DNA of 64,000 nucleotides from Octopus vulgaris (Eukaryota), in assembly GCA_951406725.2 (NCBI GenBank), contig OX597815.1, forward strand, positions 37,386,001 to 37,450,000, in the 5' to 3' direction. Below, one piece after another: positions 30,334 to 64,000 of this stretch (the stretch's first letter is position 1; each line of letters starts with the position of its first letter). Made by a program: the position numbers and the translations under genes. The notes beneath the pieces were generated by a model. That model ran no database searches. It was not told where the DNA came from and was given only the letters and a program-made list of their open reading frames with translations.

Positions 30334-30530
30334 ACTTTCTTTCTGTCTTTCTTTCTTTTCTCTTTCTTTCTTTCTTTCTCCCCTCCTTTCTTTATTTCTT
30401 CCCTCCTTTCTTTCTTTCTTTCTTTCTTTCCTTCTTTCTTTCCTTCTTTCTTTCTTTCTTTCTTTCTTTGTCTCTCTGTCTCTCTGTCTCTCTCTTTCTC
30501 CTCTTTCTCTTCCTTTCTCTCTTCTTGTCT
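30334..30530. repeat. (TTTC)n/(TC)n polypyrimidine tract
   Basis: Direct reading. Confidence 0.95.
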
Positions 30531-32245
30531 GTATGTCAATGGGTTTAACTTTGATTATCACATTCTTGAGGTCGGTAAGTCTAGTAGCGGTGGTCTAAAC
30601 CACAAAAGAATTTATTCGAAGCAAAAATAAATTGTCTTTTTTCTTTGAAGTCTACAGAAATAGTCTCGATGACTTTCAAGGCGAATAATTTTTTTACTAT
30701 GCGACATCTGTCAACTATGTTGCAATTTCTGCAATATTTTATATACCGTTTCGTTAAAAGTCTTGTTAATTGATTGTCGTTAGTATGTTTGTTACGACAA
30801 GCCTAACTTGGTCGAGCTTGTTAAATGACGTCGGATGACTCGTGACAGTTCCATTTAAAACTTCGTCTGACAAGCATCGAGTAATCTTTTAATGAGGCTG
30901 CTTTGCTGTTGAGATTGCAATTTCTCATTCCTGTCACAACTCATGTAGAAAGTTTTGTTCATGTACAGCAGAATTTTTTTTTTACTTTACCTCTAAGCTT
31001 CATGCCATTTCAAGATTTTAACATTTAATCTTCTGTCAAATATTTTAGGTTGCTTTAACTAATAACTGATGTGCATACAACGAGAAATAAAATCGATTTA
31101 TTAAAGTTTTAGATAAATATCAAACAACATTCATAGCTACATTTTCTTATAAACATACATACTGTGCAGGTACGTTTAGACATATCAGGTATGTATTCGT
31201 CATATTGTATGTTGGTATGTATATATTTGTACATAAACACACACACGCTCCCCTTCACTCCCTCTTTCTCTCTCACATACCACACACATACGCACACACA
31301 TACACTCACAAGCGTGGGTTATTTAGTCATATCAGTATAAATGAAAAATATCCCATTGTCGAAATTCACCATATATCTCATCAGACGCTAGAGGCGCAAA
31401 ATGCTTATCATTATATAGAAAATTACTTATATCTTAAGTATTTGGTTCGATGATCTTCTATTATTTTGTGTGTGATAGAAGAAACAGTTTATTGAAACAT
31501 TGGTAAATTCATAGACTTTTTGTTACAAGAGAAACAATGGGAATGAGAGTATTCAATGTGTTTCAGAGAATGGGAAAATGTTAGGAGCATAAAACCGAAA
31601 TGCAATAGGAATGACGAGAATACTAGAAACTATTGTAGCTGTGATACAAGAAGCAACTGGAAGATCCATCTTCTGGGAAATGATGTATATGATAATAAGT
31701 ACCATGCTGTGAAATGATTTTCTATTCGTGAAAGATGTACAAGTATGCAGTTTTATGTGATGTAGTAAAATATACATTGTACCAATACGCCACAAAGGGA
31801 CTGAAACTGTTCAAAGGTAAGGACATTTTTAGGCAGGAAGAGACAGCGTTAATTTAGATGCTCTTTTAGCCAATGTATAAATGTGTGGTCACCACAGAAT
31901 CTGTAATTGTATTGTATAGTATCTTTATGAGTGATCTGTATCTTAATGCATAAGGAAGATATTGTGGTTGCATATATTCTTGATGTGAATAGTGAATGTA
32001 TTGTGTTTTTTCTTCAAAATCTGTTCATAGAAGTTATTTTCAACTAATATGATTCATGCAAATTGCTATTGGATCGTTGTCGGTGCAGAAAGTTGTTAGA
32101 ATGGGAAAGAAATAGCTATATCTGATAAAATATGTAATTCAAGTGATAAACGAGATATAGCTAATAAAATACTATTATTATTATTTACAGTATATATATA
32201 CATATATATATATGTGTGTGTGTGTGTCGGTGTGTGTGTGTGTAT

Positions 32246-34074: not shown

Positions 34075-34600
34075 CACACAGTCCGACCTCTCCACTTCGC
34101 ACATCTTCCCTAACCGACTCCTCCCCTCCTTCAAACCAGCCCACAACCTACGAGACCTCTTGGTCCACAGCTTCTTCCCTAACCCAACCTCCCAACCCGG
34201 CTCGTTCCCCTACTCACGCCCCCGCTGCCGCACCTGCCCTTACCTCTCCAACACCGCCTTCCTCACCAGCACCCATCATCGACCCTATCACATCACCGAC
34301 TCCTTCACCTGCACTTCTACCAATATTATCTACCACATCTCCTGCTCTCTCTGCCATTCTCTGTACATCGGGCAAACGGGACGCCGCCTGACTGACCGGT
34401 TCGCGGAACACCTCCGAGACATCCGACTCGGCAATGACACCCCGATCTCACGCCATTTTCGCTCTACCGGTCACTCTTTGTGACACCTGACCGTGTTCGG
34501 ATTATCCTTGGAGAGGGGCCATCCGGATTCCCGTTTGCGCCGTGAACAAGGATTAATCTTCTCTCTTTGCTTCTTTGTACAACATGGACTCAACTCTCCT
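34075..34600 (+). mobile_element. Penelope-like element fragment (GIY-YIG endonuclease)
   Basis: NLRDLLVHS, RCRTCPY, FTCTSTNIIYHISCSLCHSLYIGQTGRRLTDRFAEH, ISRHF. Confidence 0.92.
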
Positions 34601-35347
34601 CCCCACTTCATCTAAGATCCTCTCCTCGCCTCTCTCCCCCTCACAAATACATCCTCCCACCCACCTCTCCTCTCTTGCTGCAACTCCTATTTCTCTTCCC
34701 TCCTCTCTTGCTCCAACTCCTATTTCTCTTCCCTCCTCTCCTATCTTCTCTTCACTCCTACCTACCTCCCTTCTCCTTCCTCCCTTCATCGTCACCCCTC
34801 CTTCGTAAGCATTCATATATATATATATAAGCATACACACAGACACACACACAAACACACACACATATTATGTATTTGCTTGTGTATTCAAACGTTGAAG
34901 TGTGTCAAAAGGATTAGACAAGTGCTCAACACATGTTATATAAAATATGGATTATTGAAATTAAATCTTTATCTCGCGATTCGGGTTTTACATCACTCTC
35001 TTATATATGTGGAGTCATACATATCTATTTCAAAGATATGTCCCATCCATGACGTTACATCTATAACTAAACCGTCTGTTAGATTTTACTATCCCTTTCA
35101 AAAATCTTTTCTGGGTCAAAAATAAATCGTGATATCCTTATCTTGTGTGATGTCACACCCAAAACACATCGTAGAAATCTATTGTACACATTTTGTGAAT
35201 AAATAGAGAAATATATATCAAGTTGATAAAACTTAAGTGACTAGAAACTCTATCACATATGCGTAACATCAAGGCTTTAGAATTTAACAAATAATGTAAT
35301 TAATGTGTAAATTAAAGAAGACCAAACTATTTCCGTGTTTCATAGTA

Positions 35348-42882: not shown

Positions 42883-44514
42883 ACGTATATATAATAAAAT
42901 ATGCTTCTAAAACATATGTTCATACATACACACATACGTGTGTGTGTGTGTGTGCGTGTGTGTGTGTGTATGTGTGTGTGTGTGTTTATGTTTAAAACGT
43001 TGATCGGAGAAATGGAAACTCTCCGTTTATATGAAGCATTGAAATAAGTGCGGAGCAAATATTGATTTCTTTTGTCAATGATGCCACCTTTAACTGAAGC
43101 ATCGCCAATTACTAGTCTTATTTTATCGACAATGTACGTATGAAAGCAATGCTAACACCGATGGGATTTGAATTCAAAACATACAAGATAAGATAAAATA
43201 CTACAACGTATTTTGTTTGGTGTTCTACTATTTATACCAAGCAGCCGCTCTTTGATTTCTTAGTGGGAGACTTACACATTTATCGGAGACTAGAGACTAT
43301 TAGAAAAGTGAATGAAAAGATACAGTTTTGCGACGGAGTCGAAACTAAATCACAGTATAAAACTATTAGAGTTTAACATTCAATGCTTAAAGGGAATGAA
43401 GGAGATTCTATGTGGCCATCTCTTGCTAGAAGTCGTATACTAAGTCTTTCGAATCCCACCCTATTGTTTTGAAAGATGAAGAACTAAGTCGTGAAAGTAT
43501 TGCTAAATTCTCAAAATAATGGGGCTGCATTGGTTGAAATCCCTTTGATGACGAATCTGTTCTTGCGCGGTTGATCTGTCGTTTAACGACGGAGACTGGG
43601 TTTAAACGTTCATTCTCTAGTATTCAGCACATAGAATTTCCTTGCCCCTAAACTCAACAATACACACAATCTGGTTTCATCTTTTTATTGTCATTAATCG
43701 TCGTAACATTGTGTTCCACGGGGCGAGATCTCTCGGTCAATGCCCAACGGCTGACTTGAATTTAAAACATGTACGGTTAGAATGATTCATCGCTTACAAA
43801 GCATTTCATGAAGTGTACATAGGCAAACCATGCCACTCAGTTATGACTACACTATTCCAACAAGTTTAAAGTAGCGATTTTCTTTTCGTTGATATATCTT
43901 TCACTGTGCTCATATCAATCCATTCCTCACAGTTTACATATTCGTAAGCATTCATGGTGATGCGGACTCAGGCATTTCGAATCATTTCGCTTCCTTTCTC
44001 TCTTCATATGCTTATGCATGTGATATGTTTTATATACGTACATGATTGATAAAGGCACAGACACAGCCAAAATGTGTTATGCAACTGTGCCATTCAGTAA
44101 CACATTGTGTAAGTGACTTCTATCTTAAACTCGGGTTGACCAATGCCTTGTGAATGGGCTTTGGGTGATGGAAAGTACACGAAAGCTGAAATCGGATGTT
44201 TTTGAAAGTCTTTAAACTGAGCAAGGTTTTACGTAATGGTCGCATTTCCTTGTATATATTATGCAAACTTGAAACGCACATATTAACGTATTTCCAAATA
44301 TCACTGTATAGTTTAATTTTATTATTACAACTAATACGACTCGATTACAAAACGATATCATTTATACGAATACCATAACAATAATTTGGAGCGGTTTGTT
44401 ATATTTGACTCGAGCTGAGTGCAGTACATCACTTCTTAGCGTAATACAAAACATACAAAACACACACAAACACACATATTTAGGAAGACTTTCTACCTTT
44501 GATAAACATAAATA

Positions 44515-44642
44515 TCCGCTTTGCATTATTTACATTTGACGGATATTTGTCCTGATCTTGTTTGTTGTTAATACAACGTTTCACCAGGTGTCTTGGGGAA
44601 ATTTCGAACCTGGGCTCTCATTCCTAAGGTATTTTTCGATGC

Positions 44643-44679
<37 letters not shown>

Positions 44680-45440
44680 ATTATTGATATTCTGATCACC
44701 GCCCTGCGCTCTTATGTCTGTGGGCAATTATGGAGTTAATTTTTACGGCTTATAAATCTAATATTTTCCTATCCTTCCTTAATACCGGTTCCCATGTTAC
44801 TCGTATCGGCACTCGGTTCTAGCATATATGCTGCTCCCTTTAGGTTTCTTATTTTCCAGTTGTGTTCTCTGTCTATTATTTTAACTTCATCCCACAGGAT
44901 GGGGTCTCCGTTATTCCATACTTGATCAGCTATACCCGATTTATCAATATCTCCTCCTGTCACAGCTTTGCGATGTTCGTCTACCCTTATTTTGAGGGGG
45001 CCGGCATGTTTCGCCTTTGTATTACCTACCACAGCCGCATGGGTTGGCGTGCATGCAGTTTTTGATCACATTCTCTTCTACTGGTGGTTTTACTCGAAGA
45101 AGATATTTGCGAAGTGTTGTATTACTCTTGAAATCTATCTCGATGGCATATGGGCCGCATATCTTTTGTATCTTTTGGGAGAGGCCTTTTTACCTAGGGT
45201 AAACAGACTGTGGCCAGTTTATAGAGTTCATCCCCTCTTTTCTTTATAATTGAAATGGATAGTATGTTTTTGGGGTAGTTGTTGCTTATAGATTGTTACT
45301 TAGCTTGATCATTTCTTCCTGGTGTGTATCAGGATCGCTACATATATCCTTTGGTCGATGTTTTAGGCACTGAGCAATCCCTCTCTTAACGGATTGTAGG
45401 AATTGAACAATCTCTCTTTATGTATGGTGGGAACTGAAGT
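44515..45440 (-). mobile_element. Penelope-like element 3' portion (RT C-terminus, GIY-YIG remnant, pLTR)
   Basis: PLKIRVDEHRKAVTGGDIDKSGIADQVW...WDEVKIIDREHNWKIR; upstream LPYV-like ctgtttaccctaggtaaaaggcctctcc; pLTR with (TAA)n and a residual GAAACGTT. Confidence 0.85.
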
Positions 45441-45513: not shown

Positions 45514-45581
45514 ATATATATATACATATATATATATGTATGTATATATATATGTGTGTGTATAAAATTAATATAATTATA

Positions 45582-45629
<48 letters not shown>

Positions 45630-48320
45630 TCACAATCATGCACACATACATGTAGGCACACACACATACATACATACCCACACATGCACACCCTTACACT
45701 GAATGCACACACACATACACCTTTTTGCATCCAGGCAGCCCCCCCCTCTTTTCTGCTTTCCGGTTTTGGCTGTTGGGTCCTCGGTTCCCGCGTAGCGGGT
45801 CGTTCGAGGGCCTTTGCGCTCGCGCGCCTTGGCGCGCGCTGGGGGCTTGGTCGGCCCCATGGGCTTGCGTTGTATTGCTTGTGTGTTGTGTGCGTGAGCG
45901 CGCTTCGTGTGTGTGGGCTTGCTTCGGGTGTGCGCGTGCGTATGTATACATACATACGCACATACTCGCATGCATCCCTACCCACATACATACACGCACA
46001 CCTACTCACACACACACATACACACACACACACACATACCCGCACACACACACTCACACACACACATACACACACACACACACATACACACCCACAGACA
46101 TACACCCATACGCTCACACTCACACGCATACACACACACATACACACGCACACGTACACATACACACACACACCTACATACATACTTTACACTTGTACAC
46201 ACACACACTTACATTCATACACACACACACCTACACAGCCATACCCTCACTCAGACACACACACCTACCTACACACACACACAAACACACACAGACACAC
46301 TCAGACATACATACATCTACACACACACTCAGACACACACACATACACACACACATACATAAACACACACACATACACATACACACACATACGCATACAC
46401 ACATATACTTATACACATGCACACACACACACACATACATACATACACCCATACACATACACACACACATACCTACATACTCCTATACGCACATACATAC
46501 ACACAGACATACACACATACACACTCACACAAACATACACACACACATATTTACACACACACTCGCCTGCACGCGCACACACATGCATGACAAACACCCA
46601 TACACTCACACTCACATACGCACACACCAACATAAACACGCACACGCACACACACACCTACACTCCCACACACATACATACGCACCTACATACACACACG
46701 CACGCATACACACGCACACACACGCATACACACATACATTACACACGTACACACACACCTACATACATATGCATACACACACACACACAAACATGCACGG
46801 ACACACCCAGACATACATACATACACCTATACACACACGCCCACACACCTACATACACACACATACATACACACACATACACGGACACACCCATACATAC
46901 TTACATACATACACCTATACACACACGCCTACACACCTACATACACACACATGCATACACACACACATGTACGCACATACACACACATATACGCACATAC
47001 ATATATACCCACACACATGCACACACACACACATACGCACATGCATGCATGCATTCACACGCGCACACCTACACGCATACATGCATACATGCATACACAC
47101 ACGCACGTACACATACATACATACACACACACATACATACACCCATACACATACATGCATCCTACACACACATACATACACACTCACACATACATACACA
47201 CACACACACACTCACTCACACACCTGTATGTACGCGTACACACATGCACATACACACACTTCCACACACCCACACGTACATACATACACACTCATACACA
47301 TACACACACACACACACACGGACATACATCTATGCACACACATATATACACTCATACTTACATACATTCATCGGACACACTGACACCCAGACATACACAC
47401 AGACACACTCACACATCCACACACATACATACTTACACACACACTCGCAGGCGCGCGCACACACGCGCTTGCGCCGGTTCGCGCACGCATACGCGCATGC
47501 ATGCACCTCGCTCTTGGACCCGACGGGAACTCCCGCTCGTTTCTGGGGCCGTCGCCTGTCGTTGGGTTCTCCCACGCCCGTCTCCGCGGAACCACTCTTC
47601 CATCTTCCCCTCACTTGGAGTCCTTTTTCCTTATAACCCCCCCTTTTTTTGCTACACACACGCGCACACATACATACACCCACTCACACACACACATTGC
47701 TTAAATATATACATTACTCTTACACACACTTCAAATCTACTCGCCATTAATACAACCATGACACTGGACACACACACACTACTACTCAACACGCTGGCAC
47801 GTTACATACGGCCCCACCCCTTCCCCTCCCTCCCTTCCTCCTTCCTTCATTTTCTTACTACTGACCACTGTCTGCTGCCTACTACTGTTCGCCCTACCTC
47901 ACACGCCTACACACAGACGCACACACTAACATATACATATATTTTTTGTTTTTTTATCTCGCCTCACACACACATACACACACGCACACGCACACACTCA
48001 CACATACACACACATCTGTTGCGTTACCAACCCTGTCTCCACTCTTTTGGCTTTAAAAACCTACTTTGCTCTTGTTATCGTAAACTTCCGCCTTTCACCA
48101 TGTGTACTTCGTAAACACCAGTCGTTTTTTTTCTCCATCTCTTGTTGCCCACTTTGGGATCTTTCTTTCCTCTCTCTTCCTTCTTTATGTTTCCGACGAA
48201 GAGCTCCGCTCGAAACGTCATACCTTCATGCTTCCATCTTTCCAGAGCGCCTATTAATAATAATACTGTAATTGTTCCACGTGTTGTTGTTTTTTCTGTT
48301 TTCCCGTTTGGATTAAAATT
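45630..48320 (+). mobile_element. Composite insert: cryptic (CA/TA) microsatellite body with a Penelope-like pLTR end
   Basis: Flanked by a 37-bp direct repeat (45553-45589, 48342-48378); ends in a pLTR-like segment with a hammerhead motif at 48189-48223. Confidence 0.6.
48189..48223 (+). ncRNA. Minimal hammerhead ribozyme motif
   Basis: gttt-CCGACGA-a-gagc/tcc/gctc-GAAAC-GTC-atac; stem III reduced to the palindrome ACGT; stem I imperfect. Confidence 0.65.
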
Positions 48321-48370
48321 ATATATATGTATGTATATATATGTGTGTGTATAAAATTAATATAATTATA

Positions 48371-48985
<615 letters not shown>

Positions 48986-63171: not shown

Positions 63172-64000
63172 TGTTTGAAGCGAGGATATTTTTTCGCCAC
63201 ATGCTGGTAACTTTTATGCAACACTTTTGAAATGCCAGCGGGGATTTCAAAAGGCAATTTGAAAAGCGGGGATTACTGGAAACATGCAAATGCTTTTGTA
63301 TGTCATTAAAGGAAATAGCAAATGAAATAGCTAAGATTAGCAAAGATAGTCAAACCTATACGCTTAATTAAAGCAAACACAATACAATAGATGACAGAAT
63401 CCCTTTAGTGATTAACTGGCACCGACATTTCGCTGGCATTTCAAAAGTGTTGCATTAAAGTTACCAGCATGTGGCGAAAAAATATCCTCGCTTCAAACAG
63501 ATATTTCCTCAGCCGCCTATTGTAGCCTTTAGACAGAATAAGAATATAAGAGAATTATTGATCTCTATATCTGACTCCAAGAAAACGAACATTGGAGTAT
63601 CTACACGCTGTGCCCTGCCCTAACGAACAGCCGAAAGAGAGGTAAGCCCTGTTCATTGTGCAACAACATGAGTGAAGTGGATTCCATCAGAAATCATAAC
63701 AGAAATGTTATGATTTATACAGAAGGTGGAACATGTAAAGATTCCCATTTGGTGTACGCTGCAGAATGCACGAAACACAACCTAATTTACGTCGGATGCA
63801 CAACAAAACAATTAAACAAAAGGTTTAATAGGCACAGATTCAATGTCAGGCACAATAACAGTAGTTCAACAGAAACTGCTGAACATTTCGTTTCAAGCGG
63901 CTGCAATTTTGAAGACTTGAGAGTGCATATTCTCAGAAAATATTCTGAATCTGCTTCGCTTTCACTTCTCAGAATGTATGAGGAGAAATACGTTTACGCG
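63172..64000 (+). mobile_element. Penelope-like element with a 5' inversion; GIY-YIG domain runs off the window end
   Basis: RIPLVINWH, FPQPPIVAFRQNKNIRELL, TCKDSHLVYAAECTKHNLIYVGCTTKQLNKRFNRHR...AEHF; 63172-63240 is an inverted copy of 63431-63499. Confidence 0.9.

Follow-up and report, generated by a model that had tools for sequence, protein, structure and literature searches.

An A-poor patch in an octopus Penelope-like element as a probable genomic record of ADAR editing of a 3′ UTR hairpin

Within the window, the 64,000-nucleotide stretch of Octopus vulgaris DNA analysed here, lies a patch of 204 nt with only 5 A on the plus strand (45738–45941; 57 C, 77 G, 65 T and 24 CpG). The flanks are about 41% A and 5% G, and the only stretch of this length in the window with a lower A count is a pyrimidine tract at 30334–30537 (3 A, 7 G), the next lowest after the patch having 19 A. 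RNA editing is normally erased along with the RNA, and the locus raises the question of whether the missing A were edited in an RNA and the result kept in DNA. A first-pass annotation, made from the letters alone, had pointed out this A-depleted, G-rich patch in its A/C-rich context, which is real, and had read it as ADAR hyper-editing of an RNA intermediate of this insertion. We find that the patch is an inverted duplicate of a 3′ UTR module of a Penelope-like element, and that both arms changed from A to G on the sense strand, very likely through ADAR editing of a hairpin whose sequence was copied into master copies by reverse transcription.

The insert is a young Penelope-like element

Both this patch and a second GC-rich patch lie inside an insert of 2.7 kb, with the following features.

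45545–45617, strand not given: left copy of the target-site duplication, 73 bp repeated exactly on either side of the insert
45632–48315, plus strand: young copy of a Penelope-like element, 5′-truncated to 3′ UTR only, in a (TA)n tract; matches longer copies at 91–99%, with the 5′ limit set by eye where the TA tract ends
45738–45941, plus strand: arm 1, the A-poor, G-rich patch, an inverted duplicate of the downstream UTR module, A>G-rewritten; homology to the unedited module runs via the older grades D, C and B
45946–47425, plus strand: CA/CATA-rich spacer separating arm 1 from arm 2 (A 41%, C 39%, G 5%)
47426–47640, plus strand: arm 2, the original UTR module, also A>G-rewritten; folded in isolation with arm 1, it forms a duplex (45757–45945 with 47426–47621)
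48193–48219, plus strand: hammerhead-like motif near the 3′ end of the insert, read from the sequence; core position 4, usually U, is C throughout the family
48334–48406, strand not given: right copy of the 73-bp exact duplication (target-site duplication)

The 3′ part of the insert was searched against its own genome assembly (2.8 Gb, 227 contigs), where 40 of 40 scored matches are 96–100% identical. Longer copies extend upstream of the 5′ end of the insert into reverse transcriptase (RT) and GIY-YIG endonuclease (EN) frames on the plus strand, which confirms the earlier assignment of that strand as sense. The frames stand in the order RT then EN, with matches to RVT_1 (E value 0.00089) and GIY-YIG (E value 0.0047) that are both below Pfam’s curated cut-off; a third frame of the longer copies has no Pfam match. 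About 40 residues ahead of the GIY-YIG match, P0001 has a C-x4-CxxC linker. In 3 of the 11 long loci (L062, L065 and L070) a partial repeat of the 3′ end lies upstream of the ORF, with arm 2 near the start of the repeat in L062 and L070, and (TA)n directly adjoins the 3′ ends of most aligned copies.

As read from these sequences, the element appears to have features of Neptune-type Penelope-like elements. In the accessible parts of PMC8557442 and PMC4209133, such EN+ elements have an RT followed by a C-terminal GIY-YIG domain, as here (by weak matches), and they share with the octopus family the linker (CX2-5CxxC before the GIY-YIG motif; PMC8557442, accessible part), partial tandem repeats (pLTR) and (TA)n targets; their hammerhead-like motif has a counterpart at the 3′ end here, with one core change. 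Distinct from what those parts describe is the CA-rich 3′ UTR of about 3.1 kb, in which an internal inverted duplication is a fixed family trait. The hammerhead-like motif was compared with minimal Penelope-like hammerheads (from the accessible part of PMC4209133); Rfam gave no match at gathering score anywhere in the window, this motif included. The C-for-U hammerhead core is also present in relatives of families E and F3, and F2 has another variant.

Other Penelope-like sequence is present nearby. Related endonuclease-region fragments occur at window positions 34079–34603 and 63486–63997 (56% and 28–42% identity to P0001), and positions 44460–45440, beside the insertion site, look by eye like a minus-strand fragment of another Penelope-like element, where P0001 gave no match. 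Between subfamilies A and B the spacer (45946–47425) is about 2% different and the 3′ tail 17%, a possible sign of mosaic history or of alignment bias.

The G-rich form is shared by all close paralogues

Matches to the patch in its own genome are 95–100% identical in 40 of 40 scored cases (the best 40 of 432 candidates), and the flanking downstream anchor has 401 matches. A purine-degenerate 27-mer from the patch has 273 exact matches, and none of the 100 matches listed has more than one extra A. When 30 loci were anchored on each flank, the G form was found in every copy holding the patch. Across 95 distinct copies the patch contains 5–11 A (median 8), the window copy being the A-poorest, and contigs from four public runs under three organism labels also read the G-rich form. 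The change is therefore ancestral and family-wide, and not specific to the window insertion as had been proposed.

No close unedited paralogue was found in the same orientation: with as many as 3 mismatches allowed, three A-enriched motifs retrieved 7, 3 and 2 sequences, each a family copy with one or two A. These motifs missed the precursor because it is too diverged. An A=G-tolerant alignment of the modern patch to 44 stretches from sister families and the element itself, with its own patches masked, gave repeat-type matches only, and is uninformative because of that masking and because the modern patch was compared directly. The first-pass annotation held that a G form common to all paralogues would speak against editing; it is indeed common to the close paralogues, but an unedited form survives in opposite orientation in a sister family, as described below.

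In young copies C>T changes occur at 14.6 per 1000 CpG sites and at 17.7 per 1000 other sites; CpG sites mutate no faster, and there is therefore no sign here of methylation or function of the CpG cluster. Conserved local RNA structure within the patch is unsupported, the sense-strand z lying between 0.08 and −1.6 and 17 subfamily differences keeping the fold no better than random placement. By eye, some short motifs could be read as splice sites or as YY1/NRF1 motifs.

Truncation of the 5′ end inside the patch is seen in 6 of 30 downstream-anchored copies, 4 of them within 19 nt (window 45799–45817; L229, L241, L243 and L255), compared with 9 of 24 in the 1.27 kb that follow. Stalling of RT in the GC-rich sequence is a possible cause, the numbers being small. 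One young copy, L270 (G000:C1:93328300-93333300), has lost arm 1 through an internal deletion and kept arm 2, and provides a natural control for arm function.

Arm 1 is an inverted duplicate of a UTR module

A search with motifs of the endonuclease region reached older relatives. Two of these, L272 of grade C and L280 of grade D, match grade A at the ORF end with 91% and 88% identity, and both contain homologues of the two patches. The D patch as query led to 30 old loci. Majority patches of D, C, B and A1 have 8 A each, with 13, 15, 19 and 25 CpG, respectively; the second GC-rich patch of the window copy (47448–47640) has 24 CpG.

In two loci, L186 and L187, the first patch is absent and the second is A-rich. 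With this A-rich module as query, sister family E was found (30 loci fetched), which has a single A-rich UTR module and no first patch. The D-form first patch matches the E module on the minus strand only, in 27 of 30 loci (E values 4e-8 to 1e-3). It thus arose as an inverted copy of this module, which is today's second patch. Homology of the window patch to E is undetectable in direct comparison, the link running via D, C and B. Both arms are absent from the loci read in families F2, F3 and F5. In a tree of 3′ tails, 21 two-arm rows fall on one side of a branch (support 95/99) and 25 one-module or no-module rows on the other, the distant F2 rows lying on the latter side; the tree omits 9 rows without a usable tail (L315 included) and 10 of 24 E tails.

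The core of the inverted precursor has 48 A and 2 CpG in 131 nt; the D form has 8 A in 156 nt. Of 54 G in window arm 1 that map to the precursor, 25 were formerly A and 25 were already G. This origin alters the proposed starting text of the patch. Conversion of G back to A was said to restore text like the flanks, but when the patch is scored with a model of the flanks that includes an A>G channel, the result is −414 to −427 bits, worse than the −408 of a uniform model, and T makes up 0.53 of the pyrimidines in the patch against 0.26 in the flanks; the precursor was instead the downstream UTR module in reverse complement. Of the two tracts read in this way, cgcgcgc did come from cacacac, and the TG tract came from (TATG)n and not from an AT-only tract. 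Scored with Markov models, A>G ranks first of 24 edit channels in most cases, but only at z 2–3 over shuffles. The creation of a CpG-dense island by editing, also proposed, applies to the first part of the rise: A>G changes took the count from 2 in the 131-nt precursor core to 13 in the oldest two-arm grade, and the later increase from 13 to the 24–25 of today is mostly due to T>C.

At the end of arm 2 (window 47590–47625), a pyrimidine tract followed by CAG is found in D, C and most A copies; E has CAA, and the window copy has lost the feature. Judged by its letters, the A>G change there may have made a 3′ splice-site-like signal.

The A>G excess is confined to the arms and falls on the sense strand

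The unedited and edited forms were compared as the majority sequences of E and D, which represent living sister groups and not a proven ancestor, with a scoring matrix that gave all four transitions equal treatment. Between the reverse complement of E and D arm 1 there are 33 substitutions. A>G makes up 25 of them and turned 25 of 41 A into G; the other 8 are transversions, 5 of them A>T, and G>A, C>T and T>C are all absent. Arm 2, which was not inverted, shows 13 A>G among 26 substitutions, with 13 of 26 A changed. With both arm cores pooled, 38 of 59 substitutions are A>G, alongside 2 G>A, 0 C>T and 4 T>C, so that mismatches against the unedited counterpart have the A>G bias that was predicted for them. 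Under four scoring schemes applied to both arms with their repeat ends, the counts are 46–48 A>G, 2 G>A and 6–7 T>C.

Outside the arms, only 3 of 303 A became G between E and D (34 differences in 964 nt, from the ORF end, the early UTR and 260 nt after the module), compared with 38 of 67 in the arms (Fisher p 6e-30). The core of the earlier proposal, sense-strand A-to-G change fixed in DNA by retrotransposition, is borne out by this contrast, and we infer from the sequence pattern that ADAR was the agent. E copies compared with their own majority show no comparable bias (13 A>G, 22 G>A, 19 T>C and 17 C>T). Young copies give no sign that A>G is still in excess in the arms, which have few A left: it affects 4 of 710 A there and 56 of 15361 outside them. 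The A>G form is present in all later subfamilies.

In both arms A>G falls on the sense strand, as would be expected if one RNA folded back on itself and both strands of its stem were deaminated. Ancestral A–U pairs are now 43 G–U, 35 A–U and 4 G–C in D, and U is kept opposite 43 of 47 G sites; this retention of U in the partner arm confirms the A of E as the original state, and the position of all two-arm rows on one side of a supported branch in the tail tree points to the same direction of change.

Depletion of G 5′ of edited sites, a further prediction of the first-pass annotation, goes in the right direction without reaching significance: between E and D, 2 of 7 A were edited after G and 36 of 53 after other bases (p 0.088), a trend toward 5′-G avoidance. 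The corresponding figures for the two-arm copy L315 are 1 of 7 and 40 of 80 (p 0.11). After U, A was edited at only 2 of 6 arm-1 sites, which speaks against the ADAR reading.

The predicted duplex and probable repeated rounds of change

The energy of the duplex between the arms, relative to shuffles, gives z of −13.4 in D, −9.7 in C, −8.1 in B and −6.8 in the window copy, with −2.1 for the window antisense. When the whole UTR is folded, 120 of the 175 nt of arm 1 in L315 are paired with arm 2. For the window copy the figure is only 16 of 208, and imposing the arm duplex on it costs 26 kcal/mol; in the fold of the whole window insert, 0 of 189 nt of arm 1 pair with arm 2. By these models the duplex is largely decayed in the window copy. 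Inverted pairs of family copies occur at G000:C4:83571500-83591000 (about 15 kb apart) and C10:114845018-114849975 (directly adjacent), and are possible further duplex substrates.

L315 (G000:C15:62096418-62099550) is the least-derived two-arm copy, with the fewest other changes and the strongest predicted duplex. It has 31 edits in common with D and 6 of its own, and lacks 15 of those of D; of 55 ancestral G–C pairs, only 2 are now A–C. Together, these shared, private and missing edits point to at least two rounds of editing.

Of the 49 changes that separate arm 1 of D from that of the window copy, 18 are T>C, the most frequent kind, and subfamilies A and B differ in the patch chiefly by T and C. 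T>C opposite an edited G was seen at 17 sites (G–C) against 13 that kept G–U, compared with 0 A–C and 13 A–U opposite unedited A (p 0.0004 in one alignment); this bias is alignment-dependent, having the same direction with p 0.003–0.47 across 12 variants. The later T>C could reflect selection for pairing, copying between the arms, or editing of A–C mismatches in antisense RNA, causes that are inseparable here. ADAR acts on A–C mismatches, according to the accessible part of PMC4693238.

Probable editing of a hairpin and its alternatives

In the proposed mechanism, the inversion of the UTR module would have arisen in a master element, whose transcript would have folded arm 1 onto arm 2 across a CA-rich loop of 1–1.5 kb. 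ADAR would have deaminated about half the A of each arm, and the edited RNA would have remained competent because the changes lie outside the ORF. Editing followed by reverse transcription would have taken place in at least two rounds, and later U>C changes, tending to lie opposite new G, would have made some G–U pairs G–C and raised the CpG count. Conversion of about 50% in long duplexes is the published level for ADAR in the accessible text of PMC2790459 and PMC4693238.

Inversion of the module would by itself make the patch G-rich and A-poor, as the complement of a C-rich, T-poor strand, and the inversion is real and accounts for 25 of the 54 mapped G. As the sole cause it is refuted by the A content of the inverted precursor core (48 in 131 nt against 8 in 156 in the D form), and the unmoved arm also gained A>G; that inversion alone produced the patch is very improbable. 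Ordinary mutation with selection on the hairpin, and no enzyme, could let wobble-tolerated transitions accumulate in the arms, given that A–U to G–U keeps the pairing and that later T>C tend to lie opposite G. G–C to G–U would be tolerated equally, yet C>T is absent from the arm cores against 38 A>G; selection cannot raise the rate from 1% of A outside the arms to 57% inside, and subfamily differences preserve the patch’s own fold no better than randomly placed changes. We hold such an enzyme-free course to be improbable.

The weakness of the 5′-neighbour signature would suit another strand-specific mutator, either RT misincorporation in duplex RNA or a deaminase other than ADAR. Errors by RT would have to arise in the duplex alone and be of a single substitution type, the private changes of young copies consist mainly of C>T, T>C and G>A, and both the level and the confinement of the A>G changes match published ADAR activity (PMC2790459 and PMC4693238, accessible parts), which leaves a different mutator unlikely. 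A base-calling or consensus artefact had been named by the first-pass annotation as a real alternative, and the window copy does have the lowest A count of the 95 copies, as an artefact or an edit private to this insertion might produce. Both are excluded by the family-wide G form, with its 273 exact 27-mer matches, and by the agreement of the contigs from the four public runs, and their probability is negligible. The preferred reading is thus editing of the folded transcript, probably by ADAR, fixed by reverse transcription.

A bolder version would make ADAR a recurrent heritable mutator of an active retrotransposon lineage, in which repeated rounds stripped A from the UTR hairpin, selection rebuilt G–C pairs, and a microsatellite-like tract became a CpG-rich element now used by the family, for example as a promoter or RNA-folding signal. 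We regard this extension as conceivable but rather doubtful.

Relation to known systems

ADAR A-to-G hypermutation has been described in the genome of Drosophila sigma virus (PMC2790459, accessible part), and the same text cites Rous-associated virus and avian leucosis virus as further cases. These viruses and the octopus element share clustered A>G on one strand, affecting about half of the A in a defined region and copied into a replicating genome. The viral cases in that text are rare single isolates; here the changes are in a non-LTR retroelement master lineage, through at least four successive subfamily grades and hundreds of chromosomal copies.

The ‘DNA editing’ of vertebrate LTR retrotransposons by APOBEC, as far as the available portions of PMC4866542 and PMC2873906 describe it, is likewise a deaminase-type hypermutation in genomic retroelement copies, recognised by strand bias and by polarity relative to a relative. 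There, the cDNA of vertebrate LTR elements undergoes G>A and each copy is scored by itself, whereas here the change is A>G confined to an inverted repeat of a non-LTR element; the APOBEC screen took invertebrates as its negative control (same portions). Hyper-editing of RNA across Metazoa is heavy in octopus, includes an edited Penelope element of a lizard, and is depleted of G upstream of edited sites (PMC5625713, accessible part). In that system, as here, inverted repeats serve as the substrate in repeat-derived double-stranded RNA; the edits described there are in RNA only, and here the changes are in DNA. A literature search that covered main texts, with few subscription papers, found no account of ADAR edits that became fixed in the master lineage of a retrotransposon.

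In this family, edits seem to have become part of the inherited genome and to have multiplied into hundreds of copies. Outside the ORF, such editing is not necessarily a bar to further spread of an element. A single assembly still contains the unedited form, a copy edited early and in part, and four later grades, a dated series with which one can ask how far ADAR shapes transposon sequence and GC and CpG content in animals that edit heavily.
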